Assembly (NCBI GenBank): GCA_964651115.1 | Contig: CAZYXJ010000001.1 | Location: 42,273 to 106,272 of the forward strand | Source of the DNA: an uncultured Candidatus Saccharibacteria bacterium | GTDB lineage: Bacteria; Patescibacteriota; Minisyncoccia; Phycocordibacterales; JACOZG01 | Length of the DNA: 64,000 bases | Direction: 5' to 3' | Shown: one piece after another, positions 12,847-64,000 of the stretch | How positions within the stretch are numbered: the first letter of the stretch is position 1 | Layout: every line of letters starts with the position of its first letter | Notes under the pieces: generated by a model | Databases searched by the model: none | What the model saw: the letters and a program-made list of their open reading frames with translations, nothing else | What the model was told of the DNA's origin: nothing | Program-made: the position numbers and the translations under genes

Positions 12847-12986
12847 TTGACCAGTCCAGTTGCTCGTGCTATTGTTTAGCCAAGGATGGTTCGTGGTCAA
12901 GGATGACTGGACCACACCATTTTACGGCCCTTGCATCCGCGCTTGGGCCGTTTTTTTATTTTCAAAATCTGTTAGAATCGTCGCAT

Positions 12987-28111: not shown

Positions 28112-28113
28112 GG

Positions 28114-29442: not shown

Positions 29443-29477
29443 ATAAACAGTATCACGTAAAGCCCCAGACTGTCAAA

Positions 29478-30398: not shown

Positions 30399-30589
30399 AA
30401 GGTGTAGTATAATTTAAACAATAAATCTAATCCACTAGCATTTATGACCCTTGCGTCCAAAATTTTAGTTGCCGTTCTTTTATATGCAATATTTTTTTCA
30501 ATTTTTGTTACCTTCCACCAGGGGGTAATTTTAAAAAAATATGATCTAATTAGCACTGAAGAGAATTAAACTTTAGCGACCAATGAACT

Positions 30590-31117
30590 CTAAATAACTT
30601 GTCTATTAATTTTTTCTTGTAAATACCACTGAAAATACCCTTTGTATCTTTTTTGCAATTCTTTGTTTTTCCAATCTTGGTCGGTGATGATATTTCTACA
30701 GTTCTTAGAGGCACACAAACAATTTAGAGAATACGAAACTTGTTCGCTCTCTGATCCAAGAGCCATTGCATAATCAAAAGTTACAGCTTCCCCAACTAAA
30801 ATTTCTCTCATGGCCACCAAAATAATCTGTCCATGAAAGCCAGCATTTGGGTCACAGGAATGATTGAAAAAACAAGCTGGTTCGATTTCTGATTCTTTTT
30901 TTATCCCCAAAACAAAATCATCACCAATCTGTAGGCCATAATCAGAAAGATTGGCTGGGCCTTCTTTTTCTTCTTTTATTGTCATCACGTATCCTCCAAA
31001 TATTGCTAAAACTTCGCCCTTCATTATTTTTTTTGCGGCAAATACGCCCCTCCCTGCCCCAGAAGTTGTTTCTTGCAACTTTAGTTTTTCGTTAACCCAA
31101 GAGAAAGAATTGTGCAT
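30590..31117 (-). CDS. SET-domain protein (putative protein-lysine methyltransferase)
   Basis: GRGVFAAKKI (GxG), FFNHSCDPN (NHSCxPN), EAVTFDY (ELxFDY) and post-SET CLCASKNC. Low GC, about 38%. Confidence 0.8.
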   Translation of the reverse strand: MHNSFSWVNEKLKLQETTSGAGRGVFAAKKIMKGEVLAIFGGYVMTIKEEKEGPANLSDYGLQIGDDFVLGIKKESEIEPACFFNHSCDPNAGFHGQIILVAMREILVGEAVTFDYAMALGSESEQVSYSLNCLCASKNCRNIITDQDWKNKELQKRYKGYFQWYLQEKINRQVI

Positions 31118-31160
31118 TTAAATTTGTTTATAAGTAAAAACTCACGCTATAATCATAAGT

Positions 31161-32825
31161 ATGCTAAATAACCTCATTACTTGTCCAGATTCTGTGCCAA
31201 ACTTCCTGGGAATTGTTGATACCCAACTAGCCCCTCCATTGCTATTTTATTCATATCTACCAATTATTGCCATTTGCTTATTTATGGGGGGATACGTTCT
31301 TGCGGCAAGCAAGTTTTCCCTAATTTCTAAAGCTTTCTTGGCCATCAGCATATTTTTTTCATTATGGTCAGCAAACGCACTTTTCCAGTGGATCGGGGTT
31401 CACGCCGACATAGTTCACTTTTCTTGGCAAATAATCATATTGTTTGAAGCCCTAATGTTTATTTCCGTGTTTTATTTTTCTTACGTTTTTTTACACAACA
31501 AGACACCATCGATATGGTGGCAAGTTGCACTGTCGGTTATTTTGTTCCCAATTATCTTACTTTTACCGTCCCGTTTGAATATCACCGCTTTTGATTTAAC
31601 TAATTGCGCCGGACTAGTTGGCTCTTTATGGCGATACGAATATGTAATGGAATTTTTCATTGCAATTTTGATTTTGTATTTTACCTTTAAGAAATGGCAA
31701 ATTAAAAAGAACATGAAAAGTAAAGAGGTTCTTTTGGGAGTTTCGTCCACTTTTTTTCTGGTCTTATTTTCGATTACAAACATAATTGGCGACGCCACTG
31801 GTTACTATCAAGTAACACTGGCGGGATCTATAGGTTTTGCAGTTTTCTTGGGAGCAGTTGTTTTCCTCATCGTCCGCTATAAGGCCTTCAATATTAAGAT
31901 CATTGGAACACAGGCCCTGGTTGTAACTTTGTGGGTTTTGACTGGATCATTGCTTCTGGTGGCCAAATCGGAAGTCACCCGAATCATTGTGGCATTAACA
32001 GAGATCGTCTCAATTATCTTCGGTCTCATTTTGATTAAAAGTGTTAAGCGAGAAGTCGCGCAGCGGGAAAAAATCGAAAAATTGGCCAGTGCCCTGGCGG
32101 AGACAAACGACGAGCTAAACGTGGCTAACGAAAAACTTAAAGAACTAGACAAACAGAAAACCGAATTCGTTTCGGTGGCGTCGCATCAGTTGCGTGCTCC
32201 GACTACGGCCATCAAAGGTTACTCCTCAATGCTTCTCGAAGGTTCTTATGGTCCGCTGGAAGAGAAGGCCAAGCAAGCTGTCGACGTCATTTTCCAATCA
32301 GCCCAAAAACTTAATTTCGTGATCGAAGATTTTCTCAACATTACCCGCATTGAGTTGGGCAAAATGAAGTATGAGATTTCTGAAGTTGATTTAAAGAAAA
32401 TGGTTGATCAGGTATTTAAGGAGCTCGACCCCGTGGCCAAGCGCAAGGGTCTCGAATTTAGCTTTAGTGCTGGACGAGGCTCGTTTAAGGTGATGGCCGA
32501 TCCCAGCAAGCTTTCCCAAGTCATTATGAATATTGTGGATAACTCAATTAAATATACTCCCAGTGGTTCAATTAAGGCTCGCCTTGAGGTCAAGGGAGGC
32601 AAACGTCTCTTTAGTATTACCGACACCGGTGTCGGCATGAGCGAAGAGACTCGGGGGCGCCTATTCCAAAAGTTTACTCGTGCCTACAACGCCAGCGCCT
32701 CTAACGGCACCGGTACTGGCTTAGGACTCTTCGTCGCCAAACAAATGATCGAGGCCCAAGGCGGACGTCTGTGGGTTGAGTCTGCCGGCGAAGGGAAGGG
32801 GAGCACCTTCTTTGTGGAGTTGTAG
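31161..32825 (+). CDS. sensor histidine kinase with N-terminal multi-TM sensor domain (orphan)
   Basis: About 7-8 TM helices, then HisKA H-box FVSVASHQLRAPTTAIKGY and HATPase_c G-boxes (DTGVGM, GTGLGLFVAK). No response regulator is adjacent. A TATAAT lies about 8 nt before the ATG. Confidence 0.85.
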   Translation: MLNNLITCPDSVPNFLGIVDTQLAPPLLFYSYLPIIAICLFMGGYVLAASKFSLISKAFLAISIFFSLWSANALFQWIGVHADIVHFSWQIIILFEALMFISVFYFSYVFLHNKTPSIWWQVALSVILFPIILLLPSRLNITAFDLTNCAGLVGSLWRYEYVMEFFIAILILYFTFKKWQIKKNMKSKEVLLGVSSTFFLVLFSITNIIGDATGYYQVTLAGSIGFAVFLGAVVFLIVRYKAFNIKIIGTQALVVTLWVLTGSLLLVAKSEVTRIIVALTEIVSIIFGLILIKSVKREVAQREKIEKLASALAETNDELNVANEKLKELDKQKTEFVSVASHQLRAPTTAIKGYSSMLLEGSYGPLEEKAKQAVDVIFQSAQKLNFVIEDFLNITRIELGKMKYEISEVDLKKMVDQVFKELDPVAKRKGLEFSFSAGRGSFKVMADPSKLSQVIMNIVDNSIKYTPSGSIKARLEVKGGKRLFSITDTGVGMSEETRGRLFQKFTRAYNASASNGTGTGLGLFVAKQMIEAQGGRLWVESAGEGKGSTFFVEL

Positions 32826-51084: not shown

Positions 51085-52299
51085 TTAACGTTTACGTCCT
51101 AGTAAAAAATCAATCGCCGCTTCCAGTGGCCGATCCGGCGCTGAGTCAGCCGTCGAAGTGGCCGCCTCCACCACGACATCTGGATCCAAACCATCGTGAG
51201 AAATAGAAATTCCCTTGGGGGTCAACCAACGAGCCACCGTCACTTTAAGCGCCGTGTCGGAAGAGATTGGCACCAACTCCTGGACGGATCCCTTGCCGAA
51301 GGTTTTAGTGCCAATTAGCGTCGCTACGCCATGCTCACGCAAAGCCCCAGCCAAAATCTCGGAAGCCGAGGCGCTCCCCTCGTCAACCAAAACAACCATT
51401 TTTAGCTTCTCATTAAAGAGGCCGCGATCATCGCTTTTGTAAACCTTACTCTCACCATCGCGCCGCTCCTCCCGAACCACCACCTGATCAGCGGGCAAGA
51501 ACCAGCTGGCAATATCAACCGCCGCATCCAAGTAACCACCAGGGTTACCCCGCAAATCCAAAATTAGTTTGTCGGTTTTGGAGCGAACGAACTCGCTAAG
51601 CGCCGTCCGAAATTGGCGCTCACTTGTGCCGCCAAAATTAAACAGTTTGATTAAGAAAATTTTCTCTGGCAACAGCTTCGTCTCCATGGTGGGCACTTCG
51701 ATCCGCGCCCGAGTAAGAGTCACGTCGAAAGTGGTTTGATCAGCCGACGAAGCACCGCGCAAAATACTCAACTTAACCTTGGTACCAATATCACCCCGGA
51801 TTTTACTAATGGCCTCGGCAACGCTCATCTCGGCCGCCGCCTGTCCATCAATGGACAAGATTTTATCGCCGGCCTTTAGGCCGGCGGCGGCGGCCGGCGT
51901 CCCGGGCAAGGGAGCAATAATCGTGAGCATCCGATCACGGGCGCCGACCTCCATCCCCACACCACCAAATCGCCCACTAACCTCCTCCTTAAAACTTTTG
52001 TTTTCTTCCGGTGGCAAAAAGACAGTATAAGGATCATCAAACGAATCAACTAACCCACCGATCGCCCCCCACAACTTTTGCTCATTCGTTACCGCCGCAC
52101 TGCTAGTGGCCGAAGAAACAAAACGCTCATCGAGCAAATTCCAGACTCGCCAGAAGTCATCAAGGTTAACCTCAGCTGGCTCGGTCGCCGCCCGGTTCTG
52201 AAATCCCCAAGCCACCCCGCCCACAAACGCTCCGCCGACCAAAATTAAAGCCAGGACCAAAAAACTCAAACTTTTTAGAGTCTTATTCATGTTGCTCAA
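51085..52299 (-). CDS. carboxyl-terminal processing protease (S41, CtpA-like)
   Basis: N-terminal TM segment, PDZ domain (GLKAGDKILSIDG) and S41 catalytic region (LVDEGSASASEILAGAL, GTKTFGKGSVQ). Confidence 0.85.
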   Translation of the reverse strand: MSNMNKTLKSLSFLVLALILVGGAFVGGVAWGFQNRAATEPAEVNLDDFWRVWNLLDERFVSSATSSAAVTNEQKLWGAIGGLVDSFDDPYTVFLPPEENKSFKEEVSGRFGGVGMEVGARDRMLTIIAPLPGTPAAAAGLKAGDKILSIDGQAAAEMSVAEAISKIRGDIGTKVKLSILRGASSADQTTFDVTLTRARIEVPTMETKLLPEKIFLIKLFNFGGTSERQFRTALSEFVRSKTDKLILDLRGNPGGYLDAAVDIASWFLPADQVVVREERRDGESKVYKSDDRGLFNEKLKMVVLVDEGSASASEILAGALREHGVATLIGTKTFGKGSVQELVPISSDTALKVTVARWLTPKGISISHDGLDPDVVVEAATSTADSAPDRPLEAAIDFLLGRKR

Positions 52300-52356
52300 T
52301 TATCCCAAATTGACCCTTGGTGGTCAAACTAAAATCACGCTATACTATGGGGGAAT

Positions 52357-53256
52357 ATGTTGCGCACGTTTACCTACAAAGAAATCCACTGGTTGGATCT
52401 AGAAAGTCCCACGGAAACCGAATTAGCTGAAGTGGGCAACAAATACAATCTCCACCCCCTCACCCTCGAAGAATTACGCCGCCCTTCCAACCGCAGCAAG
52501 GTCGACGCCTATCAAGACTACCTGTATCTCATTCTCCATTTTCCTGATCGACCAAATCAAGAAGCTCAAGAAGTGGACTTTGTTGTTGGATCCGACTTTA
52601 TCATTACCGCTCATTACGAACCAATTAATTCTCTACTTGATTTTGCTAAAATTTTTGAAACCGATCTGGCCTTAAAAAAGAATAATCACAAAGTCCACGG
52701 CGGTCTCGTCCTCTATTTGATCCTGCGCGAAATGTACGCCACGCTCGATCTTAGTCTCTCAGCAATTAACAATCGCCTAAAAACCATTGAGCCCAAAGTC
52801 TTCTCTGGTAAAGAACGCGAGGTCGTCACCGACCTCGCCGGCGTTAGTCGGGACTTGCTCGACTGCCAATGGAATATCAAGACTCATCGCGAAGTCCTCC
52901 AATCTCTCAACTACTCTGGGCGAGAGCTGTTTGGAGACAAATTTAATTACTATAGCCAGGCCTTAAGCAGTGAATACGATAAGGTCTGGAACTCAATCGA
53001 AAACATCCGTGGCACCTTTAACGAACTGCGCCAAACCAACGAGTCCCTGCTGGCCATTAAGTCTAACGAAACGATGAAATTACTCACCGTTTTGGCCTTC
53101 GTCTTCTTCCCCCTCTCCGTCATCCCTCAAATTTTCGGCATGAATACGGAACTGCCACTCATCGGTCAACCCTACGACTTTTACAGCGTACTTGCGCTTA
53201 TGTTTGGTTCGAGTATTGTGATGTACGTCTTGGCCCGATTTAAAAAATGGTTCTAA
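52357..53256 (+). CDS. corA: CorA-family Mg2+/Co2+ transporter
   Basis: Two C-terminal TM helices with the GMN motif (IFGMNTE). Confidence 0.8.
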   Translation: MLRTFTYKEIHWLDLESPTETELAEVGNKYNLHPLTLEELRRPSNRSKVDAYQDYLYLILHFPDRPNQEAQEVDFVVGSDFIITAHYEPINSLLDFAKIFETDLALKKNNHKVHGGLVLYLILREMYATLDLSLSAINNRLKTIEPKVFSGKEREVVTDLAGVSRDLLDCQWNIKTHREVLQSLNYSGRELFGDKFNYYSQALSSEYDKVWNSIENIRGTFNELRQTNESLLAIKSNETMKLLTVLAFVFFPLSVIPQIFGMNTELPLIGQPYDFYSVLALMFGSSIVMYVLARFKKWF

Positions 53257-54593
53257 ATCTTTACAACACCCTTAGTCGCCAATTTGACCCCGCCCCTCCC
53301 CACTCGCCGGTGGGGCTCTACGTTTGTGGCCCAACCGTCTACGATTATGCTCACTTAGGCAACTGGCGCACGCTTGTCGTAGCCGATCTTTTGCGCCGCT
53401 CTTTGGAATATAACGACCTAAAGGTTAAGCACGTCATGAACATCACTGACGTTGACGATAAAACTATTGCCGCTAGTCAGAACCAGGGCGAAGACTTGGC
53501 CACCCTCACTAAACGTTACGAACAATTATTTTTGACTGACTTTGCCGAACTTAATCTCCTACCCCCCACCACCCTAACGCGCGCCACCGAACATCTGGGC
53601 GAAATGATCGCGCTAATCGAAACTCTGATTGAAAAAGGTCATGCCTATCGCGGAGAAGATGGGATCTATTTTTCCATCGCTTCTTTTGCTCCTTATGGCC
53701 GGCTCTCCGGTCGTCCACTTGATCAAGATCTCGAACAAGGCGAGACTCCAGCGCGAGGCAAACGCGACCGACGTGACTTTGCGCTCTGGAAATTCCCCAC
53801 TCCAGAAGATGGTCCCAATCACTGGCCTGCCCCTTTTGGCGACGGGCGACCGGGCTGGCACATCGAATGCTCGGCCATGAGTCTTAAAGAGTTGGGATCC
53901 GGCTTTGATTACCACCTCGGCGGCACTGACCTAATCTTCCCTCACCACGAAAACGAAATTGCTCAATCTGAGGCCGCCACCGGTAAACCCTTCGCTAAAC
54001 ACTGGATCCACGCCGCCTTCCTGATGGTCAATGGCCAAAAAATGAGCAAATCTTTGGGTAACTTCTTTACTCTCGCCGACATTAGAGCCAAGCAAGTTTC
54101 GCCTCTGGCTTACCGCTATTGGCTCCTCACCTCTCATTATCGCTCGTTGGCCAACTTTACCTGGGAGGCCCTGGCTGGCGCCGAGAGCGCGCTTAAAAAA
54201 CTAAACCACTTTGCCGCCAGCGCCGACCCGTCAAACCAAGCCGTCAATGCCGAGTACGACGAAAAATTTAAAACCTGTCTGGCTAATGATCTAAACCTGC
54301 CGGAAGCTGTCGCGCTCGCCTGGCAATTAGTCAAAGACGACTCCCTGACTCCCGCCGAACGGGTGGCCACGCTGTTAAAATTCGATCAAGTGTTGGGACT
54401 TAAATTGGGCACGAAGACGCCAAGCATCATCCCGGCCGAAATCACTCAGCTGGTCGCCGAACGCCAAGTCGCTCGCCAAGCCGGCAACTGGGCCGAAGCC
54501 GATCGCCTCCGCCAGCAAATTGCCGAACAGGGCTTTGACTTAAACGACACCTCCACCGGCACCGAAGTTATCCCCCGGATGTCCACTATCTGA
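53247..54593 (+). CDS. cysS: cysteinyl-tRNA synthetase
   Basis: CGPTVYDYAHLGN (HIGH-like), KMSKSLGN, and zinc ligands. Confidence 0.93.
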   Translation: MVLNLYNTLSRQFDPAPPHSPVGLYVCGPTVYDYAHLGNWRTLVVADLLRRSLEYNDLKVKHVMNITDVDDKTIAASQNQGEDLATLTKRYEQLFLTDFAELNLLPPTTLTRATEHLGEMIALIETLIEKGHAYRGEDGIYFSIASFAPYGRLSGRPLDQDLEQGETPARGKRDRRDFALWKFPTPEDGPNHWPAPFGDGRPGWHIECSAMSLKELGSGFDYHLGGTDLIFPHHENEIAQSEAATGKPFAKHWIHAAFLMVNGQKMSKSLGNFFTLADIRAKQVSPLAYRYWLLTSHYRSLANFTWEALAGAESALKKLNHFAASADPSNQAVNAEYDEKFKTCLANDLNLPEAVALAWQLVKDDSLTPAERVATLLKFDQVLGLKLGTKTPSIIPAEITQLVAERQVARQAGNWAEADRLRQQIAEQGFDLNDTSTGTEVIPRMSTI

Positions 54594-54643
54594 ACACTTG
54601 GGCTTGATTTTTTGCCTCCGGTGAGCGTGGTACAATCTGCCTA

Positions 54644-56011
54644 ATGAGCGAACTAAGAACCGCTGGCGAATTTGTAAAAAGTCCGCTAAGAATCCCGCCA
54701 CAGGATATTGGCGCCGAGCAGGCACTGCTCGGCGCGATCATGCTCCGTCCCGACGCCATCTACGAAGTAATGGACGTCATTGATGGCACTGACTTTTACG
54801 CCGAAAAGCATCGCAAAATCTACAAAGCGATGATGGCCCTCCACGAAAAGGGCGAACCGATCGACATGGTGGCGCTCACTGGGTACTTAAAAGAACGCAA
54901 GCAAATTGAGCAAATCGGCGGGGCCGCCTACATCGCCGAAATGGTTAACGCCGTCCCCTCCACCAGCAACGTTAAGTATTACGCCGAAATCGTTAAGAAA
55001 AAATCCATTCTCCGGCAATTAATCTCTTCGGCCGATAGCATTGCCGAACTAAGCTACAACGAATCCGAAGATCTCGACACCGTTTTTGATAAGGCTCAAC
55101 GCACCATTTTGGAAATTGGTCACTATTCCAAAAAAACTTTTACGCGAATCAAAGACACCTTAGTTGACGCCTGGGAACGGCTCGACAAACTCCACAAATC
55201 TGATGGGGAAATGCGCGGCGTGCCAACGGGCTTCCGAGATATCGATAACAAACTAGCCGGTCTCCAAAGATCCGATTTAGTGATTTTGGCAGCCCGCCCC
55301 TCGGTGGGTAAAACTTCGCTAGCGCTCGACATTGCTCGCAACGTCGCTTGTGGTCAGAATAAAGTAGTTGGCATCTTTTCGCTCGAAATGAGCACACAGC
55401 AACTGGTCGACCGTCTCTTAGCCGCCGAAAGTAAGGTGGACTCCTGGCAATTGCGCACGGGAAAAGTAAAAACCGATGACGACTTTGGCCGCATCCGCGA
55501 CGCCCTTGATCGCCTAGCCACAGCCCCGATCTTTATCGACGACGAACCCGGCAACACCATCACCAAAATGAAGTCGGTCTGCCGCAAACTTAAAGCGGAA
55601 CATGGTTTAGATTTAATCATCGTTGATTACCTCCAGTTAATGGTGCCCAAGAAAGACAGCGACTCTCTCGTCCAGCAAGTCACCGAGATCTCGCGCTCGC
55701 TCAAAGCTCTCGCTCGCGAAATGGAGGCCCCCGTCTTGGCCCTCTCGCAACTCTCGCGCGCCGTCGAACAACGAGGCGGCAAACCACGACTCTCCGACCT
55801 GCGCGATTCTGGTTCGATCGAACAAGATGCCGACGTGGTGATGTTTATTCACCGCGAAGACAAAATGAACGAAAATTCGGACAAGAAAAACATTGCCGAA
55901 ATCATCATCGCCAAACATCGCAATGGACCAACGGGCGAAGTCCAACTCTACTTTGATGAAGCTCGCACCAGCTTTAACACCCTCGAGAAAAGCGACTTTG
56001 GCGGCTTTTAA
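54644..56011 (+). CDS. dnaB: replicative DNA helicase DnaB
   Basis: N-terminal domain, Walker A (ARPSVGKTSLAL) and RecA-like fold. 455 aa, no intein. Confidence 0.95.
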   Translation: MSELRTAGEFVKSPLRIPPQDIGAEQALLGAIMLRPDAIYEVMDVIDGTDFYAEKHRKIYKAMMALHEKGEPIDMVALTGYLKERKQIEQIGGAAYIAEMVNAVPSTSNVKYYAEIVKKKSILRQLISSADSIAELSYNESEDLDTVFDKAQRTILEIGHYSKKTFTRIKDTLVDAWERLDKLHKSDGEMRGVPTGFRDIDNKLAGLQRSDLVILAARPSVGKTSLALDIARNVACGQNKVVGIFSLEMSTQQLVDRLLAAESKVDSWQLRTGKVKTDDDFGRIRDALDRLATAPIFIDDEPGNTITKMKSVCRKLKAEHGLDLIIVDYLQLMVPKKDSDSLVQQVTEISRSLKALAREMEAPVLALSQLSRAVEQRGGKPRLSDLRDSGSIEQDADVVMFIHREDKMNENSDKKNIAEIIIAKHRNGPTGEVQLYFDEARTSFNTLEKSDFGGF

Positions 56012-56020
56012 ACCTACTCC

Positions 56021-56650
56021 ATGAGCGACAAGGTGATCCAACAGCTAGCGGAAGAGTTCCGCAAATTCCCCGGCATTGGTCCGCGTCAAGCCGAGCGCTT
56101 CGTCTATTACCTCCTGCGCGCTCCCGGCGGCACCATCCATACCCTCATCGAACGAATCAAAGAACTACGAGCGCAAGTTAATCAATGTCCAACTTGCTAC
56201 CGCTTTTTTTCTGGCCGCGAACATCAGTCGACCAACTCGCTCTGCCCCATCTGCGCCAACCCCAAACGCGATCCTCGACTCTTGTTACTAATTGAAAAAG
56301 ATACCGACCTAGAAACAATCGAGCGTTCGCGCACTTACGAAGGCCGCTACTTTGTTTTGGGCTCTTTGGTTCCCGTCTTAGAAAAAAATCCCGAACTCCG
56401 ACTGCGGGGCCCAGAGCTTTTGGCCCAAATTTCTGAACGGGCCACTCGAGGATTAAAAGAAATTATTCTCGCTCTTTCGGCCAATACAGAAGGCGATCAC
56501 ACGGCCGACTTTTTACGTCAATATTTGGAACCAGCCCTCAAACTCCATGGGCTCAAAATTTCGACGCTCGGCCGCGGACTTTCGACTGGCTCAGAACTAG
56601 AATACAGCGATCCCGAGACCATCAAAAACGCCCTCAAACATCGCGAGTAG
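56021..56650 (+). CDS. recR: recombination protein RecR
   Basis: HhH (FPGIGPRQAERF), C4 zinc finger (CPTC...CPIC) and Toprim domain. Confidence 0.93.
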   Translation: MSDKVIQQLAEEFRKFPGIGPRQAERFVYYLLRAPGGTIHTLIERIKELRAQVNQCPTCYRFFSGREHQSTNSLCPICANPKRDPRLLLLIEKDTDLETIERSRTYEGRYFVLGSLVPVLEKNPELRLRGPELLAQISERATRGLKEIILALSANTEGDHTADFLRQYLEPALKLHGLKISTLGRGLSTGSELEYSDPETIKNALKHRE

Positions 56651-56679
56651 AGGGCGCTTGAACCTAAAAATAAAGGGGC

Positions 56680-56994
56680 TTACTTGATCTCGTTAATCTT
56701 GACCGAAGTAAAGGGCTGACGATGACCGTACTTAACGCGGTAACGGCTCTTGGCGCGGTACTTGATACCCACCACCTTGTCTCCCCGACCCGCCTCCTCC
56801 ACCACCGTGGCGGTAACCTTGGCGCCCGAAGCCGCCTCACCCACGCGGGTGGTCGCGCCATCGTCAACCAACAACACCTCGTCAAAAGTGATTTGGCCCC
56901 CCTTTTCCGCCTCAACCAACTTCTCGATCTTGATCGTATCGCCAGCCGAAACCTTATATTGCTTGCCCCCGGTCTTAATTACTGCAAATGACAT
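56680..56994 (-). CDS. rplU: 50S ribosomal protein L21
   Basis: MSFAVIKTGGKQYKVSAGDTIKIEKL...GHRQPFTSVKINEI matches L21. Start at the internal Met (56994). The ORF track opens at 57072. Confidence 0.88.
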   Translation of the reverse strand: MSFAVIKTGGKQYKVSAGDTIKIEKLVEAEKGGQITFDEVLLVDDGATTRVGEAASGAKVTATVVEEAGRGDKVVGIKYRAKSRYRVKYGHRQPFTSVKINEIK

Positions 56995-57036
56995 AGTGGC
57001 TCTTATTGTACACATCCAAAACGAAAAGGCAAGACA

Positions 57037-57079
57037 GAAAAAAGCCCGTCGAGGAGCCGGGGTGGACTCCATCGACGGG
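57037..57079 (-). terminator. hairpin with T-run (minus strand), terminator of the SDR gene or rplU leader structure
   Basis: GCCCGTCGA/TCGACGGGC 9 bp stem with a 19 nt loop, followed on the minus strand by TTTTTTCTG. It lies between the SDR stop (57111) and the rplU start (56994). Confidence 0.45.
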
Positions 57080-57110
57080 CCGGGCGCTGGGTCTCCCCAG
57101 CCTAAGATCG

Positions 57111-57863
57111 CTAGGGCAAAACAGCCCTACAGGCAAAATGAGCAATCAGCGGCGCTTCCGGATCATTAAGGTAAGTGGCAATCCACTCGCCGATTGCCTC
57201 GGGCTGGACCGCGTCCACTGCCGGATCGGCCGACGTCTTCTCCCGGATGAGGGCCTCGGTATCCCGAGTGTTGATGATCCCCGGACGCAGGTCCGTGGTG
57301 CGGATAGCCAAACTCTCGCCCTCGAAACGGAGAGCCAGCTGAAACATCAGATTGCTCCCCACTTGCTTGGCCAAGCGATAGGCAAAATTACCCGCCAGTT
57401 CCTCCTTTTCAACCACGTGAGAAGAAACGTGGAAGATGTGCCCATGATTCTGCTCCTTGAAGTGATCGGTAAAGGCCAGCGCCGGCACCATCGTCGGACG
57501 GACCATCGCTTGCCGCATCCGCTCTTCCGCGGCCAAAAGCTCGTCAGCAGGATTAATCAAGACCTCCGAACGGCTCCAGCTGCCCGCCGAGAGAATAACG
57601 CCATCAATTAAGCGGAAGCGCGCCATCGCCTCGGGGATAACCCGATCGCGAATGGCCACCAAGTCGGACGCATCCGCCGCCACTGCGAGCACTCTCTCGG
57701 ACCCAATCTCTCGCAACAGCTCATTGAGCTTGTCCTGACCACGCGAAACCAGCACCAAATTGGCTCCCTGGCCGCTCAAATAGCGCGAAAGCGGCCAGCC
57801 GAGGCCACCCGTCGCCCCAATCACTACAATGGTTTTTCCCTTAAGCATTTTAAGTTCCTCCAA
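57111..57863 (-). CDS. short-chain dehydrogenase/reductase (SDR)
   Basis: GATGGLG Rossmann motif and catalytic YRLAK (YxxxK). Confidence 0.85.
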   Translation of the reverse strand: MEELKMLKGKTIVVIGATGGLGWPLSRYLSGQGANLVLVSRGQDKLNELLREIGSERVLAVAADASDLVAIRDRVIPEAMARFRLIDGVILSAGSWSRSEVLINPADELLAAEERMRQAMVRPTMVPALAFTDHFKEQNHGHIFHVSSHVVEKEELAGNFAYRLAKQVGSNLMFQLALRFEGESLAIRTTDLRPGIINTRDTEALIREKTSADPAVDAVQPEAIGEWIATYLNDPEAPLIAHFACRAVLP

Positions 57864-57934
57864 TTAAGAATCTGTCCCCTACTCTAGCATAAAATCAAAT
57901 AGTTGCGCACCTACTTTTTGTATGCTATTGTAGC

Positions 57935-58078
57935 CCACAGGAGACCTTGGTCTCCAAAGAGAGAATCAGACTTCCACTCGCTGCGGCGTCCCGCTGACCG
58001 CGCCAAATTCTTAAGGACGCCGCACGCCTCACACAACCCGCCAGATTATCCTCAGGGAAACTGGCGGTTTCTTTTTGC
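57935..58078 (+). ncRNA. candidate structured small RNA with intrinsic terminator
   Basis: This intergenic segment holds three hairpins (GGAGACC/GGTCTCC, GCGGCGTCC/GGACGCCGC, CGCCAG/CTGGCG). The last is followed by GTTTCTTTTTG. A weak TTGCGC...TATTGT promoter-like sequence lies upstream. There is no convincing ORF. Confidence 0.25.
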
Positions 58079-58081
58079 CCG

Positions 58082-59158
58082 CTATTCTTCCCGCTGAGGA
58101 GCATCGACCAACTCCAGGGCCAAGCCGGGCGCCGCGCCCGAGATCCGCATCACGTCCTTGTCGATTTTTTTAAGCTCCTTACTGCCGTTATTAAAATGAT
58201 TAACCACGGTGCCCAGCGAGTTGCCTAATTTAAGGTGGTACTCCTCGTAGGCCTTGAGGTGCTTACCAAGCTCGGCCACGCGCTTAACAATCTCTTGCGC
58301 CTTCTCCTCAATCTTCATCGCGTTTAAGCCCTGCAGCACCGTTTGCAAATAAGCCAGGAAGGAAGTTGGCGAAACGATAATGACGTGATACTTACTGGCC
58401 GCGCGCTGGATCAAATTTTCCGTATCATCCTTTAGTGCGCCGACGGTGTTGACCAAGAGATCGTAATAAATGGCCTCATGCGGAATAAACATAAAGGCAA
58501 ACTCAAGCGTCCCCCGCTCCGGCTGGATATACTTGGCCGTCTCCTGGATCCGCAGCTTAAGATCGCTCACGAACAATTTTTCTAATCGTTCGCGCTCGGC
58601 TGGCTCGCGCTCGGCCACCAAGCGATTATAGTTCTCCAGCGAAAATTTGGAGTCCACGGGAATAATCTTGTCGCGCACAAACACCGCCGCGTCCACAATC
58701 GTGCCGTCGGGAAAGGGGTACTGCATCTGGAAGGAGCCGGGTGGGAGCACATTTTTTAGCAAAGTTTCTAAATAATACTCGCCCAAGATCCCCCGCTGTT
58801 TGGGATTTTTTAAAATATCTTGCAGATCGCGAAGCTGTTCGGTAAAGTTCATCACCTGCTTTTGCCCCTCACCCACTCGCGCCAGCTCGCTGGTGATCTC
58901 GCGAATAATTTTGGTTGATTCGGAAAACTGGCTCCGCAAAGAATCCTGCATCCAGCGACTAGATTCGGTGAGCTTGCCATCCATCAAGCGGCCAAACTCA
59001 CTTATCGCCCGCGCCTGCTCGGCCAACTGGCTCTGGATCAAGAGAAGGCCCTGATCGTTGCCAGGCGCCGGGGCCTCTTTTTGGCGACGCAGGAGCCAGA
59101 CGATGACGCCAACGGCCGCCACCAAGAGCCCGATCAAAACATAAAAGCTTGCCTCCAT
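58082..59158 (-). CDS. rmuC: DNA recombination protein RmuC
   Basis: N-terminal TM segment, long coiled coil and the RmuC C-terminal domain (FAFMFIPHEAIYYDLL...HVIIVSPTSFLAYLQ). Confidence 0.85.
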   Translation of the reverse strand: MEASFYVLIGLLVAAVGVIVWLLRRQKEAPAPGNDQGLLLIQSQLAEQARAISEFGRLMDGKLTESSRWMQDSLRSQFSESTKIIREITSELARVGEGQKQVMNFTEQLRDLQDILKNPKQRGILGEYYLETLLKNVLPPGSFQMQYPFPDGTIVDAAVFVRDKIIPVDSKFSLENYNRLVAEREPAERERLEKLFVSDLKLRIQETAKYIQPERGTLEFAFMFIPHEAIYYDLLVNTVGALKDDTENLIQRAASKYHVIIVSPTSFLAYLQTVLQGLNAMKIEEKAQEIVKRVAELGKHLKAYEEYHLKLGNSLGTVVNHFNNGSKELKKIDKDVMRISGAAPGLALELVDAPQREE

Positions 59159-59237
59159 TGCCCTCTATCGTACCACGCGTCCGGTCCCCCACCAACGGTT
59201 GCGAACGAATAAAAATATGGTACCATTACTGCCGAAC

Positions 59238-59277
59238 GGCCCTATCGTCCCTGCCTGCGCAGGCAGGTAATGGCTAG
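59238..59277 (+). other. tRNA-Glu 5' fragment copy interrupted by a perfect 18 bp palindrome
   Basis: GGCCCTATCGTC, then CCTGCCTGCGCAGGCAGG, then TAATGGCTAG. The two flanks are identical to nt 1-12 and 13-22 of the downstream tRNA, with the palindrome inserted between them. Confidence 0.45.
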
Positions 59278-59323
59278 TGATGTTCCGGATAAAACAAAAA
59301 GAATCGTTTCGTAAATAACATAA

Positions 59324-59398
59324 GGCCCTATCGTCTAATGGCTAGGACATCACCCTCTCACGGTGGTAATCGGGGTTCGACTCCCCGTAGGGTCACCA
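59324..59398 (+). tRNA. tRNA-Glu (anticodon CUC), CCA encoded
   Basis: Manual cloverleaf: acceptor GGCCCTA/TAGGGTC, D-arm GTCT..GGAC, anticodon stem TCACC/GGTGG with loop CTCTCAC, T-arm CGGGG-TTCGACT-CCCCG, discriminator A and CCA. Confidence 0.7.
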
Positions 59399-59438
59399 AG
59401 TCGTGCTGAGTCTGTATGCACGAGAAGCGTCGAAAAAT

Positions 59439-59945
59439 ATGGAACAAATTCTCAAGTTAAATCCAAGCAATATCACCGATGAAGCGTCTGCCCGCCTAAA
59501 AACAAGGTTCGCTTCTAGGGGTGTTGTTTTTGACGGGGATAAAAATGTAGCTCTTCTGCCAGTAACGGCTCATAACTATTACAAACTTCCTGGCGGCGTG
59601 ATAGAAGATGGTGAGGATAAGGTGGAAGCTTTTCGCCGAGAATGTTTGGAGGAAATCGGTACGGATGTGGATGTAATCCAGGAACTCGGTTCAGTGGTGG
59701 AATATCGGGCAGAATTTTCTCTGGTTCAAACATCCTACTGCTATGTCGGCAAAATAAAAGGTGAAAAACATAAAGCTACATTTACTCAACACGAGCTAGA
59801 TAGTGGTTTTCGAGATGCAATTTGGCTACCACTGGAGAAAGCTATTGAGCTCATGGAAAGTCAGGCCGATAATCATGAGGGCAAATATGTTGTTGAGAGA
59901 GATACTTTCTTACTGAAAAAAGTTGGGGCCTTAAAAACTATCTAG
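59439..59945 (+). CDS. NUDIX hydrolase
   Basis: Nudix box GGVIEDGEDKVEAFRRECLEEIG (Gx5Ex7REUxEExGU). Start probably the ATG at 59439 (MEQILK). The ORF track opens at the GTG at 59403. Confidence 0.72.
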   Translation: MEQILKLNPSNITDEASARLKTRFASRGVVFDGDKNVALLPVTAHNYYKLPGGVIEDGEDKVEAFRRECLEEIGTDVDVIQELGSVVEYRAEFSLVQTSYCYVGKIKGEKHKATFTQHELDSGFRDAIWLPLEKAIELMESQADNHEGKYVVERDTFLLKKVGALKTI

Positions 59946-59950
59946 CCAAA

Positions 59951-59995
59951 AACCCCCTGATCAACACTCGGTGTTGATCAGGGGGGGGGGGTGAC
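59951..59995 (-). repeat. dispersed palindromic element copy 2 (inverted) with G11 tract
   Basis: CCCCCTGATCAACAC-TCG-GTGTTGATCAGGGGG followed by G-run 59981-59991. It is the reverse complement of copy 1 (38319-38366), including the 11-nt homopolymer. Confidence 0.65.
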
Positions 59996-60065
59996 AGGGG
60001 TTCTTAAAAAAAATTAGGGGGCGCTCGAGAAGCATAATTAATGGCTTTTCTGCTATCATACTATT

Positions 60066-60608
60066 ATGAATAGCTCAGTCATCGTTCTAAACGGTCCAAT
60101 GTGTGCAGGAAAAAGCACGATCACAAAGCTACTGATGCAGAATAATAATGTTTTTCGTGGTTCTTATGATGCAGTTAAGTGGCTTATAAGTAACTATTCT
60201 GCCGACAATGAAAATCATAGAAGAATTGCAAAAGAAGTAATTTTCAGTGCAATAACTACTGCTATTGAATCTGGTTTATCTATTGTTATAGATGGCGGTT
60301 TTGCAGATTTTAGAAACAGATACAAAGAACTTGCTCAAAAGTTTAATTTTGAGTATATAAGTCTAAATATTGAGGCGCCTATCAAAGTTTTAGAAAAAAG
60401 ATTCTTGGAACGAGTTAATTCCGCTAACCAAGTAAATAGTAAGACTATCAGTGTAACAACGCTAGAAGGTTTTTATTCTCGATATCAATGGTATTTGAGT
60501 ACCAACAAAGATTTTGATGGAATTACCTTTGATTCGAGTAAATTAACAGCAGAAGAGATTGTTACCGAAATTATAAAATTAACCAAAGTCCGCCACATGG
60601 CGGGCTAG
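60066..60608 (+). CDS. P-loop kinase, chloramphenicol phosphotransferase (CPT)/zeta-toxin-like
   Basis: VIVLNGPMCAGKSTI resembles the CPT N-terminus IILNGGSSAGKS. About 180 aa, similar in size to CPT. Very low GC, about 35%. Confidence 0.6.
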   Translation: MNSSVIVLNGPMCAGKSTITKLLMQNNNVFRGSYDAVKWLISNYSADNENHRRIAKEVIFSAITTAIESGLSIVIDGGFADFRNRYKELAQKFNFEYISLNIEAPIKVLEKRFLERVNSANQVNSKTISVTTLEGFYSRYQWYLSTNKDFDGITFDSSKLTAEEIVTEIIKLTKVRHMAG

Positions 60609-60648
60609 GTAGGGTCGCGAGTCGAGTGAACACGCGAGAACTTGTGAC

Positions 60649-60667
60649 CGACTCCCCGTAGGGTCAC
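60649..60667 (+). repeat. direct repeat of tRNA-Glu 3' end (attR-like)
   Basis: CGACTCCCCGTAGGGTCAC is identical to tRNA positions 59376-59394. A second GTAGGGTC motif lies at 60609-60616. Confidence 0.6.
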
Positions 60668-60829
60668 AAAGTCCTTGAGCTTGACAAATACTTAAAATAT
60701 AACATACTTATTAGGATTCCTTAGCTTGTTGCTAGGGAAAATTAACAAACGTCTCTGGGGGTCCGCCCCCTCGTCCGGTCCGCCGGAGACAAAGAGACCA
60801 ACGCGCCTCCGTGGTGCAAGGAGCTTGAG

Positions 60830-61426
60830 ATGTCGAATGTAACTTGGGTCGCCTGCGGTCTGGTTGCCGCGAGCATGATCCTGGCGAAGGTCTGGTCAAA
60901 AGTAGCGTCCAGGCGCTTCTTGAAACGTAAATCTTCGTTTTCCTCGGTGCTCAGGTGCGCCGAGGACATGGGCTTCGGGAACCTCTCCCGAGTCCTTCAA
61001 CGCCTCCGGATTATCAAGGTGTTCGAAAGCGGAGAGGGCAATCTTCGAGTCGAGATAAACACTCGACTCCTCTCAACCAAGAGAAGGGGTTTATACTTGG
61101 TTGACAACGACCTGGCATTGATATCGCTCGGTTCGATTCTCCACGCCCGCCCAGACGATGAAGCGCTCTGGCAACAGGTTGCCAGCTTTATCGTCGACGA
61201 GAGTCACAGGTGTCCCAAAAATAGGACGCTGGCGATAGAGACAATGATCTCTTTGCTGGCGCGGCGACACAACGAGATCTTCGAGCCAATGAAAACTCGG
61301 TGCAAAGACCTCGTGAGCGCGCACCAGATGATCGACCGGGCACGGGAAACGGCTCACCAAATCCGGCGAGCTGGCGGTGACCCGGACGGGTGTGCCGTTG
61401 AACTCCGAGACGACGTGCTGGCCTAA
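60830..61426 (+). CDS. hypothetical protein
   Basis: 198 aa, high GC. RBS AAGGAG lies 6 nt before the ATG and is preceded by a GC-rich structured leader (GGGGG-TCCG-CCCCC). No family recognised. Confidence 0.5.
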   Translation: MSNVTWVACGLVAASMILAKVWSKVASRRFLKRKSSFSSVLRCAEDMGFGNLSRVLQRLRIIKVFESGEGNLRVEINTRLLSTKRRGLYLVDNDLALISLGSILHARPDDEALWQQVASFIVDESHRCPKNRTLAIETMISLLARRHNEIFEPMKTRCKDLVSAHQMIDRARETAHQIRRAGGDPDGCAVELRDDVLA

Positions 61427-61437
61427 ACCGCCAGCAC

Positions 61438-61492
61438 CACCCCTGAAAAAAGCACTCGCTTTTTTCAGGGGTGCTTTTTTGTTTTATTTTTT
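61438..61492. terminator. strong hairpin terminator between convergent genes
   Basis: CACCCCTGAAAAAA-GCACTCGC-TTTTTTCAGGGGTG (14 bp stem) followed by CTTTTTTGTTTTATTTTTT. Confidence 0.8.
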
Positions 61493-61495
61493 AAA

Positions 61496-62791
61496 TTACC
61501 GCTTCTTCCACTCGGGGTCTTGGCGGACGAGGAGTTCGGCGGCGCGGGCGGGTTCGGCCATGATCTCCTCCACCACTTTTTCTAGACGAATGGATTGTGA
61601 CCCCTTAACTAGCACGATATCACCCGGCTGGAGCAAGGCCTGCAACTTCTCCCCCACCCCCTGCCACGTATCAAAATGGAGCATCTGCTTCTTAAGCATT
61701 TTATGTTGATGAGCGGCCTCGGCCAAAAATTTGGTTCTCATCCCCACCGTAATTAAAAAATCTATTTTAGCGGCGGCCACTTGTTCTCCGGCCCGCCGAT
61801 GCGCCTCGATCGTCAGCGGTCCAAGCTCCAACATATCACCCAAAACAGCCAAGCGCCGACCAGACGCACCCATTTTAGAAAAAGTTTCGATTGCGGCCTC
61901 AAGCGCCGCGGGTGAAGAATTGTAACTATCATCCACGATCAAGGTCTCTTTAATCCCCGGAATCAACCGAAAACGGCCCGGTGGAGTTTCTAGATAAGCC
62001 AGCGATTCGGCAATTTCGACTAAATTAAGACCAACAAACTGGCCCACCGCGACGGCCGCCATCACGCCATACAACTGATGAGGCGCGGCCAGACCCCTAA
62101 TCCGCACTGGTAAATTGTGCCCAGCGGTGGCCAGCTTAAAACTTAATCCCTTGAGCACCCCCTCTTCCATCAAGGACTCTGGATGCTCGCCCCGGATAGT
62201 TAGTCCCTGGCCAAAGCCGTAAGTCACCACCGGAGCCGCCAGACCTCGTGAGCGCGCCATAATCCGCTCATCGTCACCGTTTAAAATTACCTGCCCCGCG
62301 GCCGGGACGGCGCGAGCTAATTTCATCTTCTCCTCGGCCACCTCTTCGGGTGACGAAAAATATTCCACGTGGACCGGCACTTCGGGCAAGCGGGTAACAA
62401 TCGCGACATCAAATTTAACCCAACTAGTAATCCAATCAATGTCGCCGGGCTGTTCCACCCCCACCTCCAACACCAACCACTCCGGGTAAGGACTTTTAAA
62501 CAAAATGAGACTGGCTCCCTCCACAATATTTTTTAACCACCCCGACAAACTCCACCACGCATTAGGCAAATTTAAAATCGTCAGCGGCACACCCAACTCT
62601 CCGTTGAAACTTTTGGCGCTTTGCCGGACCTGGTAACGCGAACGAAGCACGGCGGCCACCGCCTCTTTTGTCCCCGTCTTGCCGACACTACCAGTAATCC
62701 CCACAATTTTGGGGCGATATTTACGGAGAACCAACTTGGCCTCCCAACGAATAATGGCGATAACAATCGAGCGTAAAAAGTGGCGAGCCAT
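61496..62791 (-). CDS. murF: UDP-N-acetylmuramoyl-tripeptide--D-alanyl-D-alanine ligase
   Basis: Mur ligase P-loop GITGSVGKTGTKE, central and C-terminal Mur ligase domains. Confidence 0.88.
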   Translation of the reverse strand: MARHFLRSIVIAIIRWEAKLVLRKYRPKIVGITGSVGKTGTKEAVAAVLRSRYQVRQSAKSFNGELGVPLTILNLPNAWWSLSGWLKNIVEGASLILFKSPYPEWLVLEVGVEQPGDIDWITSWVKFDVAIVTRLPEVPVHVEYFSSPEEVAEEKMKLARAVPAAGQVILNGDDERIMARSRGLAAPVVTYGFGQGLTIRGEHPESLMEEGVLKGLSFKLATAGHNLPVRIRGLAAPHQLYGVMAAVAVGQFVGLNLVEIAESLAYLETPPGRFRLIPGIKETLIVDDSYNSSPAALEAAIETFSKMGASGRRLAVLGDMLELGPLTIEAHRRAGEQVAAAKIDFLITVGMRTKFLAEAAHQHKMLKKQMLHFDTWQGVGEKLQALLQPGDIVLVKGSQSIRLEKVVEEIMAEPARAAELLVRQDPEWKKR

Positions 62792-62801
62792 CGTAAAAAG
62801 A

Positions 62802-64000
62802 TTAGCGGTCCGGGGGCACTTGATAATAGTTTATCAAAAAGTTGGTCAGATTCATAAACGGCTGAGTGAGGGTCTCGGAAGCGTACTGCACCCCCTGGGG
62901 GTAAACCACATACAAAAAGGTTAAGAAGCGTGGCGCCGAAGCCGGAAAGTAACCAAAGAAGGAATGGAGGTAACGATCGGCATAGTAACCACCAGCCGGA
63001 TTAGCCATTTGGGCCGTTCCGGTTTTGGCCGCCACCTGATAATGTTCGAGCTTGGCCTTGCCGCCCGCCAACGACTCATCCACCACGCGCACCAACATCC
63101 GACTAATTTCGGCACTGGTCTCGGGCCGCAAAACGGTTCGGCCCGGTAGCGGAGTAACCTCGCTCGACAACCGACTATTGTAACGATCAAACCGCGCCAC
63201 GACGTACGGGGTCACCAACTTACCGCCGTTCGCCAACACCGCCAAAGCTCGCGCCATGGCAATGGGAGTGACGGCAATCCCCTGCCCAAAAGAGGCCGTG
63301 GCGTACTCAACCTCGCGCGGACTAGCTAAGTTTTTTAACAAGCCCGTGCCCTCGCTCGGTAAATCGATCCCCGTCTTTTCGTTTAAACCATAACCATAAA
63401 AATAATCGCGAAATTTGGACTTACCCAAACTCTGCATCGCAAAAACCGCTCCCGTATTTAGCGACTGATTAAGTACTTGCTGCATCGACACGGTGCCATG
63501 ACTTTTACCATCATGATTCATGATCGGACGACCATCAATCACCAAGCGACCGGTGTCGACGTAGGTGGTGTCGGCCGTAATCGTCCCGGCATCCAAGGCG
63601 GCCGCCACCGTAAGCGGCTTAATAATCGAACCCATTTCGTAAACCTTGCTCACCAGAGGGTTGGTGAGAATCGAGATATCGCTCTGGCGGCCGCCGGGAT
63701 CAAAGCTGGGCGCCGCCGCCATCGCCACCACCGCGCCGGTGGTTGGCTCCAGCACGATACCACCAACTTCGGCGGCGGCATAACGCTCGCGCACCAAGGC
63801 TAATTCCTTTTCTAAATTAAGCTGGACCTCCGGCTCAATCGTCAGCACTAAATCGGCCTCGGTTTGCGTCAGTTGGCCAGAGGCCGTCCCGCGGATCTCC
63901 GCAAAAGCCCGGCCCAAAAAATTAAGAAAAGTTTGGGTCGGATCACGCTCCAAAATTTGGTTATACTGCCGCTCTAAACCATAACGTCCGGTGCGCGTGT
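62802..64000 (-). CDS. ftsI: penicillin-binding protein transpeptidase (FtsI/PBP2-like), 5' partial
   Basis: Transpeptidase motifs SxN (SLNTGA) and KTG (AKTGTAQ). The frame continues past the window end. Confidence 0.82.
   Translation of the reverse strand, partial: TRTGRYGLERQYNQILERDPTQTFLNFLGRAFAEIRGTASGQLTQTEADLVLTIEPEVQLNLEKELALVRERYAAAEVGGIVLEPTTGAVVAMAAAPSFDPGGRQSDISILTNPLVSKVYEMGSIIKPLTVAAALDAGTITADTTYVDTGRLVIDGRPIMNHDGKSHGTVSMQQVLNQSLNTGAVFAMQSLGKSKFRDYFYGYGLNEKTGIDLPSEGTGLLKNLASPREVEYATASFGQGIAVTPIAMARALAVLANGGKLVTPYVVARFDRYNSRLSSEVTPLPGRTVLRPETSAEISRMLVRVVDESLAGGKAKLEHYQVAAKTGTAQMANPAGGYYADRYLHSFFGYFPASAPRFLTFLYVVYPQGVQYASETLTQPFMNLTNFLINYYQVPPDR

Follow-up and report, generated by a model that had tools for sequence, protein, structure and literature searches.

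A NUDIX hydrolase and a P-loop kinase in an apparently composite, integrase-free islet at a tRNA-Glu gene of a Paceibacteria-like bacterium

The 64-kb stretch of contig CAZYXJ010000001.1 analysed here (the window) carries a single tRNA gene according to ARAGORN, with which Rfam agrees, namely an intact tRNA-Glu(CUC) with encoded CCA at 59324–59398 (Rfam tRNA, 58 bits). Downstream of it, past a spacer (59399–59438) that contains a small hairpin and the motif GCACGAGAAGC (59418–59428), lie a NUDIX hydrolase gene (59439–59945; 168 aa from the ATG) and a P-loop kinase gene of the AAA_18/AAA_33 type (60066–60608; 180 aa), followed by a second, exact copy of the tRNA 3' end. A displaced 5' fragment of tRNA-Glu is found upstream at 59238–59277. 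All of these features are on the plus strand, and the tRNA, its two fragments and the two genes were located where the first-pass annotation of this DNA had placed them. NUDIX and kinase are the sole plausible genes in the tiny segment of 1.25 kb between the repeats and, as had been noted, no integrase gene is among them. The islet is positioned between rmuC and the murF end of a cell-division gene cluster. A search with the tRNA-adjoining RmuC returned hundreds of homologues, all from metagenome bins of Patescibacteria (Paceibacteria-type) at 60–70% identity, and the genome is a small, Paceibacteria-like one within the Patescibacteria or Candidate Phyla Radiation (CPR). Both cargo genes are foreign in composition. 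NUDIX has 42% GC, with 0.36 at third codon positions (GC3), and the kinase has 34% GC with a GC3 of 0.28, against 53–58% GC and GC3 values of 0.59–0.68 in five flanking host genes and 51% GC in the window as a whole. The contrast first reported is real, its original figures being slightly off.

The 19-mer CGACTCCCCGTAGGGTCAC occurs exactly twice in the 64 kb, at 59378–59396 inside the tRNA and at 60649–60667, and is confined to the tRNA and the junction as had been expected. None of 100 shuffles contained any match to it with three mismatches permitted. The repeat spans the tRNA from C56 of the T-loop through the 3' strands of the T-stem and acceptor to the discriminator and C74, and extends into the trailer to 25 nt at 96% identity, that is, with one mismatch (59378–59402 and 60649–60673, the latter on the plus strand). 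Chance thus does not account for the recurrence of the tRNA 3' portion, in direct orientation, at the far border, and the anatomy of the repeat supports the att duplication at the tRNA T-loop/3' end that was originally proposed. The 60649 copy shows the T-arm variant of the host lineage (GACTCCCC) and not that of the low-GC genomes that carry the kinase, and this fragment is therefore host DNA and was not imported.

Ahead of the kinase gene, on the plus strand, a second partial copy of tRNA-Glu is represented by its degenerate left half (59987–60003, GGGGGTGACAGGGGTTC). This half ends in the T-loop TTC and matches the 17 tRNA nt directly ahead of the 19-mer (59362–59378) at 13 of 17 positions, a level reached in 16 of 20000 shuffles of the intergenic stretch. 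When 60004–60648 is removed the two flanks align as a single 41-nt copy of the tRNA 3' half with one extra C at the join. The simplest reading of the sequence would be that a kinase cassette interrupts a partial second tRNA copy at its T-loop, the 19-mer being the right half of that copy. The cassette (60004–60648, plus strand) is a single-gene unit of 645 bp made up of an A-run, a leader with GCTCGAGAAGC (60023–60033), the kinase open reading frame (ORF) and a 40-nt tail ending in GTGAC. Ahead of the left half lies a hairpin with a perfect 15-bp stem followed by a G run (59953–59985; no strand assigned), which on the minus strand reads as an intrinsic terminator.

The closest relative found, assembly GCA_964444555.1 (L096), was reached via its NUDIX homologue and has about 85% nucleotide identity to the window, with amino acid identities of 95% for RmuC, 93% for MurF and 97% for the penicillin-binding protein (PBP). 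Collinear blastn matches at 84–87% nucleotide identity cover 51352–59249, 59324–59923 and everything from 61500 onward. The middle block comprises the tRNA, which is identical at 75 of 75 nt, the spacer, which is conserved, and nearly all of NUDIX, whose product is 86% identical to that of the syntenic gene (GC3 0.36 here and 0.38 in L096). Window positions 59924–61499 have no match in L096; in their place it has a gene for a PRK-family kinase on the opposite strand, together with three ORFs lacking annotation. A copy of the tRNA 3' end was not found in the L096 stretch, the best match, with 10 mismatches in 23 nt, being no better than random. As L096 has the tRNA and NUDIX without kinase or repeat, NUDIX is the older resident and was present in the common ancestor. 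An empty site for the whole segment was not encountered; the comparison with a relative proposed at first pass turned up a genome without kinase and repeat that retains NUDIX in place. The kinase, the repeat and an insertion 5' of the tRNA appear, from these alignments, to be private to the window's lineage.

This last insertion measures 86 bp (59250–59335, plus strand), is bounded by the 12-bp direct repeat GGCCCTATCGTC and supplies the 5' end of the live tRNA-Glu. In L096 an identical upstream flank joins the tRNA directly without the 86 bp (blastn breakpoints 59249/59324). The displaced 5' fragment comprises two exact tRNA matches of 12 and 10 nt, namely tRNA nt 1–12 (59238–59249) and nt 13–22 (59268–59277), interrupted by the perfect 18-nt palindrome CCTGCCTGCGCAGGCAGG (59250–59267). 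Duplications on the 5' side of tRNA-Glu are also present at L086:840-887, L070:~8063-8254, L076:~12924-12983 and L098:6496-6587. The displaced fragments range from nt 1–8 up to nt 1–22 and lie 49–192 bp upstream of the live tRNA-Glu; a short perfect palindrome sits within or after the fragment in both the window and L086.

The kinase cassette, absent from L096, is 82.9% identical at the nucleotide level to L086 over 60014–60583. L086 is a metagenome contig of 35% GC in which the homologous block begins 3 nt past an intact tRNA-Glu(CUC). About 50 relatives of the kinase at 43–86% identity were retrieved from a set of 5.8 billion proteins, all from CPR-type sources and under generic names (AAA family ATPase, predicted kinase, shikimate kinase). 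All homologues are genes of 25–37% GC in contigs of 32–44% GC; in passing between lineages the kinase has bridged a difference of about 20 percentage points in GC. No relative was found in viral contigs or in phage and plasmid collections beyond 30-aa P-loop matches, and a phage or plasmid origin of the kinase is therefore unsupported.

The association with tRNA-Glu recurs. Of the 14 distinct kinase loci for which flanks are available, seven have a tRNA-Glu gene (CUC or UUC) no more than 3.5 kb away. The L090/L091 kinase is flanked by tRNA-Glu(CUC) on one side and by a T-loop-to-3' fragment on the other. In L106/L107 an exact direct repeat of 19–21 nt, with the same T-loop start as in the window and preceded by CTGAC (GTGAC in the window), bounds a 2.9-kb island that adjoins tRNA-Glu(UUC) and contains the kinase, a hydrolase-NUDIX fusion and a small ORF; L106 has an inner degenerate tRNA fragment in addition to the outer exact one. 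L090 and L106 have a 739-bp cassette in common at 88% nucleotide identity, in an rmuC and a tsaD neighbourhood, respectively. At the window's own locus the order PBP gene, murF, tRNA-Glu(CUC), a variable interval of 1–8 kb and rmuC is kept in about 20 RmuC-bearing relatives, among which the orientation of the tRNA flips. Of 50 long ORFs in these murF–tRNA–rmuC intervals 48 are singletons, which makes tRNA-Glu(CUC) a hypervariable hotspot. A Shedu defence gene (SduA C-terminal domain, E = 2e-27) is found about 400 bp past tRNA-Glu(CUC) in one relative (L012:416-2198), so that the hotspot acquires defence genes too. Small GIY-YIG nuclease genes of about 80 aa adjoin tRNA-Glu at L105:3668-3907 and lie a few kb from the kinase at L106:2108-2356.

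We consider it somewhat better than an even bet that the islet is a composite without an integrase of its own, built at the tRNA-Glu(CUC) hotspot in at least two steps by serial, T-loop-targeted integration in trans. In the first step, before the split from L096, a foreign NUDIX gene would have been placed directly 3' of tRNA-Glu, leaving a partial copy of the tRNA 3' half downstream of NUDIX in the manner of an attR scar. In the second step, recent and restricted to the window's lineage, the 645-bp kinase cassette from a low-GC relative would have entered the T-loop of this partial copy, after which a duplicated core of about 20 bp would have been lost at the left junction of the cassette. 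The 86-bp insertion on the 5' side would represent a third, separate event at the same tRNA gene. We infer that the T-loop-to-3'-end boundary may be the signature of conservative site-specific recombination by a T-arm-targeting integrase of the tyrosine type; fragments of this kind are, as Williams reportedly described in 2002, the classic footprint of such enzymes.

Several observations weigh against this composite reading. Searches of 30 window ORFs and of 20 ORFs from the relatives' hotspots yielded neither a tyrosine nor a serine recombinase, and none is present among the genes called or annotated near the kinase and NUDIX loci. The left half of the split copy is only 13/17 identical, and the left junction of the cassette has no duplicated core as expected of a clean integration, so a secondary deletion of about 20 bp must be assumed. 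The kinases of L090 and L106 face the opposite way to the tRNA, for which an inversion or a second insertion mode is needed. At about 85% nucleotide identity L096 does not provide a true strain-level empty site, and the order of events is unproven as L096 could have lost a former kinase and repeat. Neither the window nor 108 related loci showed an integrase-bearing element that uses the same att site, and no cognate element of this kind is known from these bacteria. As no recombinase was found, the elements would be remnants or would be mobilised in trans, accreting like cis-mobilizable elements (CIMEs). Both halves of the first-pass suggestion, a decayed remnant or a cassette mobilised in trans, are thus retained, for two units instead of the one then envisaged.

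Smaller insertions at tRNA ends were also observed among the relatives. Seven of 66 tRNAs (Glu, Arg, Leu, Lys) are followed by a T-loop-to-3' copy of themselves after 140–211 nt (L005:12133-12375, L011:3770-4056, L021:6441-6675, L027:9650-9882, L032:1050-1284, L073:160-410 and L079:1642-1885). Each of these mini-inserts is free of genes and has a terminator-like hairpin just past the tRNA as well as an inverted T-arm copy able to pair with the direct fragment; Rfam recognised nothing but tRNA in them and in the islet. Their uniform size suggests a miniature element over random decay. Inverted copies of the segment from the T-loop to the acceptor 3' end of tRNA-Glu (16 nt, 0–1 mismatch) lie about 50 nt downstream of the tRNA at L017:2229-2244 and L020:6040-6055, and such inverted cores could explain why both tRNA and kinase cassette occur in either orientation. 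Among the right ends of mini-inserts compared, the (G/C)TGAC junction is common to L032 and L106 only. The 40 nt ahead of the 19-mer were compared with these right ends for homology as well, and no claim is made as the ends are too diverse. Similarly, a 16/20 repeat between the upstream flank of the tRNA and the start of NUDIX was dropped, being at about chance level.

A tentative extension of these observations, to which we assign a low probability, is that Paceibacteria carry a family of integrase-free miniature elements, from gene-free inserts of about 120–190 bp to single-gene cassettes of 645–740 bp, that insert at tRNA T-loop/3' ends, regenerate the tRNA, pile up in tandem and are moved by a recombinase supplied in trans. 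This would amount to a cassette system with tRNA genes as attachment sites, of which the window's islet would be one accreted example. A literature search returned no description of miniature tRNA-end elements of this kind in Patescibacteria.

The main rival to serial integration dispenses with a site-specific recombinase altogether. DNA uptake followed by homologous or homology-facilitated illegitimate recombination, anchored on the tRNA, murF and rmuC, would account for the extreme variability of gene content between conserved flanks, and the tRNA fragments would be scars of unequal or illegitimate cross-overs and small duplications. Type IV pilus and type II secretion system (T2SS) genes, typical of competent cells, are found in these neighbourhoods, the 5'-side fragments end variably between nt 8 and 22, and neither the roughly 50 ORFs tested nor the precomputed annotations include a recombinase. 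The 3' fragments, on the other hand, start in the T-loop region (about nt 53–60) in the window, L106, L090 and the seven independent mini-inserts, and this clustering disfavours random cross-overs. The presence of the same 739-bp cassette at two different tRNA-Glu isoacceptor genes also argues against this explanation, which we regard as unlikely.

The first-pass annotation had described the segment as one two-gene island bounded by the tRNA and the 19-bp repeat. For this to be the case the integrase would have been lost and L096 would have replaced the distal half. The exact direct repeat does bracket precisely NUDIX and kinase, both genes are low in GC, the tRNA-Glu-bounded island of L106 has a NUDIX-domain gene as well as a kinase, and NUDIX genes are enriched near the kinase family. 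In addition, the 11-mer GCWCGAGAAGC occurs twice in the 64 kb, before NUDIX and before the kinase only, at a chance expectation of 0.11. However, L096 keeps the tRNA and NUDIX at genome-average identity with neither kinase nor repeat, the GC3 values of the two genes are unequal (0.36 and 0.28), and the partial tRNA copy lies between them, split by what is a separate kinase cassette. The leader of the kinase is moreover homologous to sequence directly past the tRNA in L086, and the orthologous pair was found nowhere else. A single island is consequently improbable and this part of the original claim is abandoned in favor of serial integration.

The motif common to the two leaders is not restricted to the window. 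A related form, approximately GCNCGAGA(A/G)G(G/C), contains the palindrome CTCGAG. In several genomes it comes immediately after tRNA-Glu, and it is also found at the edges of kinase and NUDIX cassettes, in many cases a short way ahead of a -10-like TGATATAAT. Sites of the GCNCGAGA type were recorded at 59418–59428 and 60023–60033 in the window, and at L096:7980-7990, L105:3998-4008 and 5845, L086:1540, L090:546 and 1200, and L106:5968 and 6643. A stricter 14-nt form (CGAGARGNGTMGAA) is present in 1.45 Mb only at tRNA-Glu or cassette-edge places. The motif could be a promoter, an operator or a copy of the tRNA trailer.

The NUDIX assignment is secure by profile search (PF00293, 50.5 bits at a cut-off of 21.1); the protein has the length of its homologues (168 aa) and an intact Nudix box, GVIEDGEDKVEAFRRECLEEIG, of the pattern GX5EX7REX2EEXG. 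The profile searches proposed at first pass also covered the kinase, which scored 36 bits with AAA_18 and 33.8 bits with AAA_33, both generic models. The original label of a kinase resembling chloramphenicol phosphotransferase (CPT) or zeta toxin stands at the level of the P-loop kinase superfamily and no further, as PF07931 (CPT) reached 22.1 bits at a cut-off of 22 over residues 4–119 only, below both generic models, and Zeta_toxin stayed under its cut-off of 22.3 with 20.0 bits over residues 5–93 only. The predicted structure (pLDDT 92) matches generic nucleotide-kinase folds at TM scores of 0.6–0.69 and no zeta structure is among the top 50 fold matches. As the folds matched are generic P-loop kinases only, no substrate can be assigned from the fold search. 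Walker A, an invariant Asp35 after strand 2 (in D35-x-x-K38) and two lid arginines are conserved. These are traits of the AAA_33/AAA_18 group at large (PSTK, Pnkp/T4 Pnk, APS kinase, CPT, TmrB, zeta), yet, unlike members of the named families, the kinase passes no family model convincingly. It belongs to a small uncharacterised family of proteins of about 175 aa that comprises 35 clusters at E ≤ 1e-30 in the full representative library.

Each of the two enzymes appears to have an intact catalytic apparatus, and their predicted substrates are most likely nucleotide- or nucleoside-type small molecules, possibly of one pathway. Whether they form a pair is a separate matter. The combination of the 168-aa NUDIX and this kinase was found nowhere else among the loci examined, and it is therefore not a conserved two-gene system or toxin-antidote pair. 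The kinase occurs without visible NUDIX in the available flanks of several loci (in L086 the neighbouring ORFs are unrelated), no conserved adjacent small antitoxin partner was seen, the neighbours varying across loci, and the toxin-antidote reading offered earlier is thus unsupported. No significant match of both proteins to one known anti-phage system was obtained with PADLOC, in which the kinase hit VakA at E = 0.007 and NUDIX gave a generic match only, to the candidate PDC-S07 (33.5 bits). NUDIX-box ORFs of various subfamilies are nevertheless found within 3.5 kb of the kinase in 5–6 of 14 loci, the background being six in 1.16 Mb. Moreover, the 168-aa NUDIX is followed by other kinases in other genomes, by one of the PRK/uridine-kinase type on the opposite strand in L096 (L096:8001-9161) and, two genes further on, by an APH-type phosphotransferase in L098 (L098:8001-10212). 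Neither is homologous to the AAA_33-type kinase of the window, which looks like non-orthologous replacement of the kinase partner. Enrichment of NUDIX near the kinase family together with these changing kinases makes a loose functional link plausible. For the two genes, a common role in metabolism of the nucleotide or nucleoside type, or joint regulation, would be plausible. The nucleotide modification module first envisaged survives in this loose form and not as a recurring pair; likewise, the search for co-occurrence elsewhere uncovered related kinases near tRNA-Glu and the NUDIX-domain gene of L106, and no second instance of the orthologous pair.

Instead of marking an insertion site, the tRNA-Glu gene could in principle be functionally tied to the kinase, which would then act on tRNA-Glu, Glu-tRNA or RNA ends, the fragments and motifs serving as regulatory mimics or co-regulation signals. 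The nearest solved structures by sequence are PSTK, a tRNA kinase (E = 5e-6), and the kinase domain of bacterial Pnkp (E = 2e-4), both far below family level, and the PHROG polynucleotide kinase profile scored 35 bits. The D35-x-x-K38 motif with the two lid arginines also resembles the active site of T4 polynucleotide kinase. A cyclodipeptide synthase (CDPS) gene (PF16715) begins 9 bp past the kinase homologue in one contig family (L082:577-1754, L083, L084, L085), and at L105:372-1775 the distance between the kinase and a CDPS fusion gene is 4 kb. As CDPS enzymes use aminoacyl-tRNAs, the kinase might tailor the cyclodipeptide or act on a related substrate. The PSTK- and Pnkp-type matches, however, owe much to the P-loop and are far under the family cut-offs (25 bits with the NCBIfam equivalogs, whose cut-offs are 750 and 290), the fold search returned generic nucleotide kinases, and tRNA-Glu is missing from the vicinity of half of the kinase loci. 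That L096 lacks the fragments and that their orientation varies fits scars better than operators. We consider a functional link to tRNA-Glu very improbable. An assembly chimera, with a low-GC kinase mis-joined at the G run and hairpin, is scarcely credible. The independent Logan contig L108 does break at 60047, which leaves the NUDIX-kinase junction resting on one assembly. Against a chimera, L108 connects the kinase with ORF198, murF and the PBP gene at 100% identity, a host-type tRNA fragment follows the kinase and the matching left half precedes the cassette.

L108 is identical to the window over 60047–64000 (3954 bp), and this confirms the junction from kinase through repeat and ORF198 to murF. 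The contig, from the same strain, ends just past the G run and hairpin, which reflects either poly-G sequencing drop-out or a population branch point at the NUDIX-kinase junction. Exact-sequence look-ups of the window's kinase and NUDIX proteins returned no contig on record; the sole exact match, obtained via ORF198, was a contig identical to the window in which no strain variation is visible.

ORF198 itself (60830–61426, plus strand) is an ORFan of host-like composition (GC3 0.68) in the segment that differs from L096. Among the 5.8 billion proteins it matched only itself, it had no match in Pfam, NCBIfam, PADLOC or PHROG, and the L096 genes in the corresponding position do not resemble it. 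A promoter-like site (60681–60708, TTGACA-16-CATACT) and a perfect 16-bp terminator just past the stop (61438–61473) give the appearance of a complete transcription unit (60681–61473) that is probably outside the kinase cassette. Elsewhere in the window a second patch of low GC (27635–32825; 35–43% against about 51–55% elsewhere) encodes an unannotated 158-aa ORF, an EamA transporter, a SET-domain protein and a histidine kinase. It has neither a tRNA nor a recombinase nearby and may be another foreign segment.

Integron cassettes are promoter-proximal single-gene units inserted at a fixed site. The islet and its relatives likewise involve single-gene units, and the inverted and direct cores of the mini-inserts might pair as attC sites do; unlike in integrons, there is no IntI-like integrase, attC consensus or array here and the likeness is one of resemblance only. 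Closer parallels are offered by tRNA-integrated islands and prophage remnants, where tRNA fragments left as attR scars are widespread and well documented (PMC9897764). As in these, an intact tRNA forms one border, a T-loop-to-3' repeat the other, and the cargo is foreign and variable. The islet differs in its size of 1.25 kb, in its composite make-up without integrase or mobility gene, and in that the proximal gene is common to the nearest relative while the distal gene splits an attR-like fragment. CIMEs are documented att-flanked elements without an integrase that accrete at att sites (PMC5704250; see also ICEberg 2.0, PMC6323972). The islet resembles them in being flanked by att-like repeats, in lacking genes for recombination or transfer and in its tandem units, whereas the units here are far smaller, ranging from gene-free inserts of about 120–190 bp to single genes. 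In Dehalococcoides, islands at ssrA are reported to be horizontally acquired and mobilised by a site-specific mechanism (PMC3146451). That case is similar in that a small-RNA gene acts as a hotspot of strain-specific genes in a streamlined genome; the target in the window is tRNA-Glu and no recombinase was seen.

The islet is a known kind of feature, an ordinary tRNA-linked islet, in an under-studied bacterial group. Its added interest comes from the kinase cassette, a single-gene unit that recurs, and from the miniature insertions at tRNA ends in relatives. CPR bacteria are thought to carry few mobile elements. The present case shows how bacteria of this group exchange genes despite their small genomes, one tRNA-Glu gene having gathered at least three separate insertions. 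Integrase-free mini-cassettes, if they are truly and actively mobile, would be a sign of a recombination system as yet undescribed for these bacteria. The kinase family, linked as it is with tRNA-Glu genes and NUDIX hydrolases, offers a candidate pair of enzymes by which organisms reliant on scavenging might salvage nucleotides or nucleosides.

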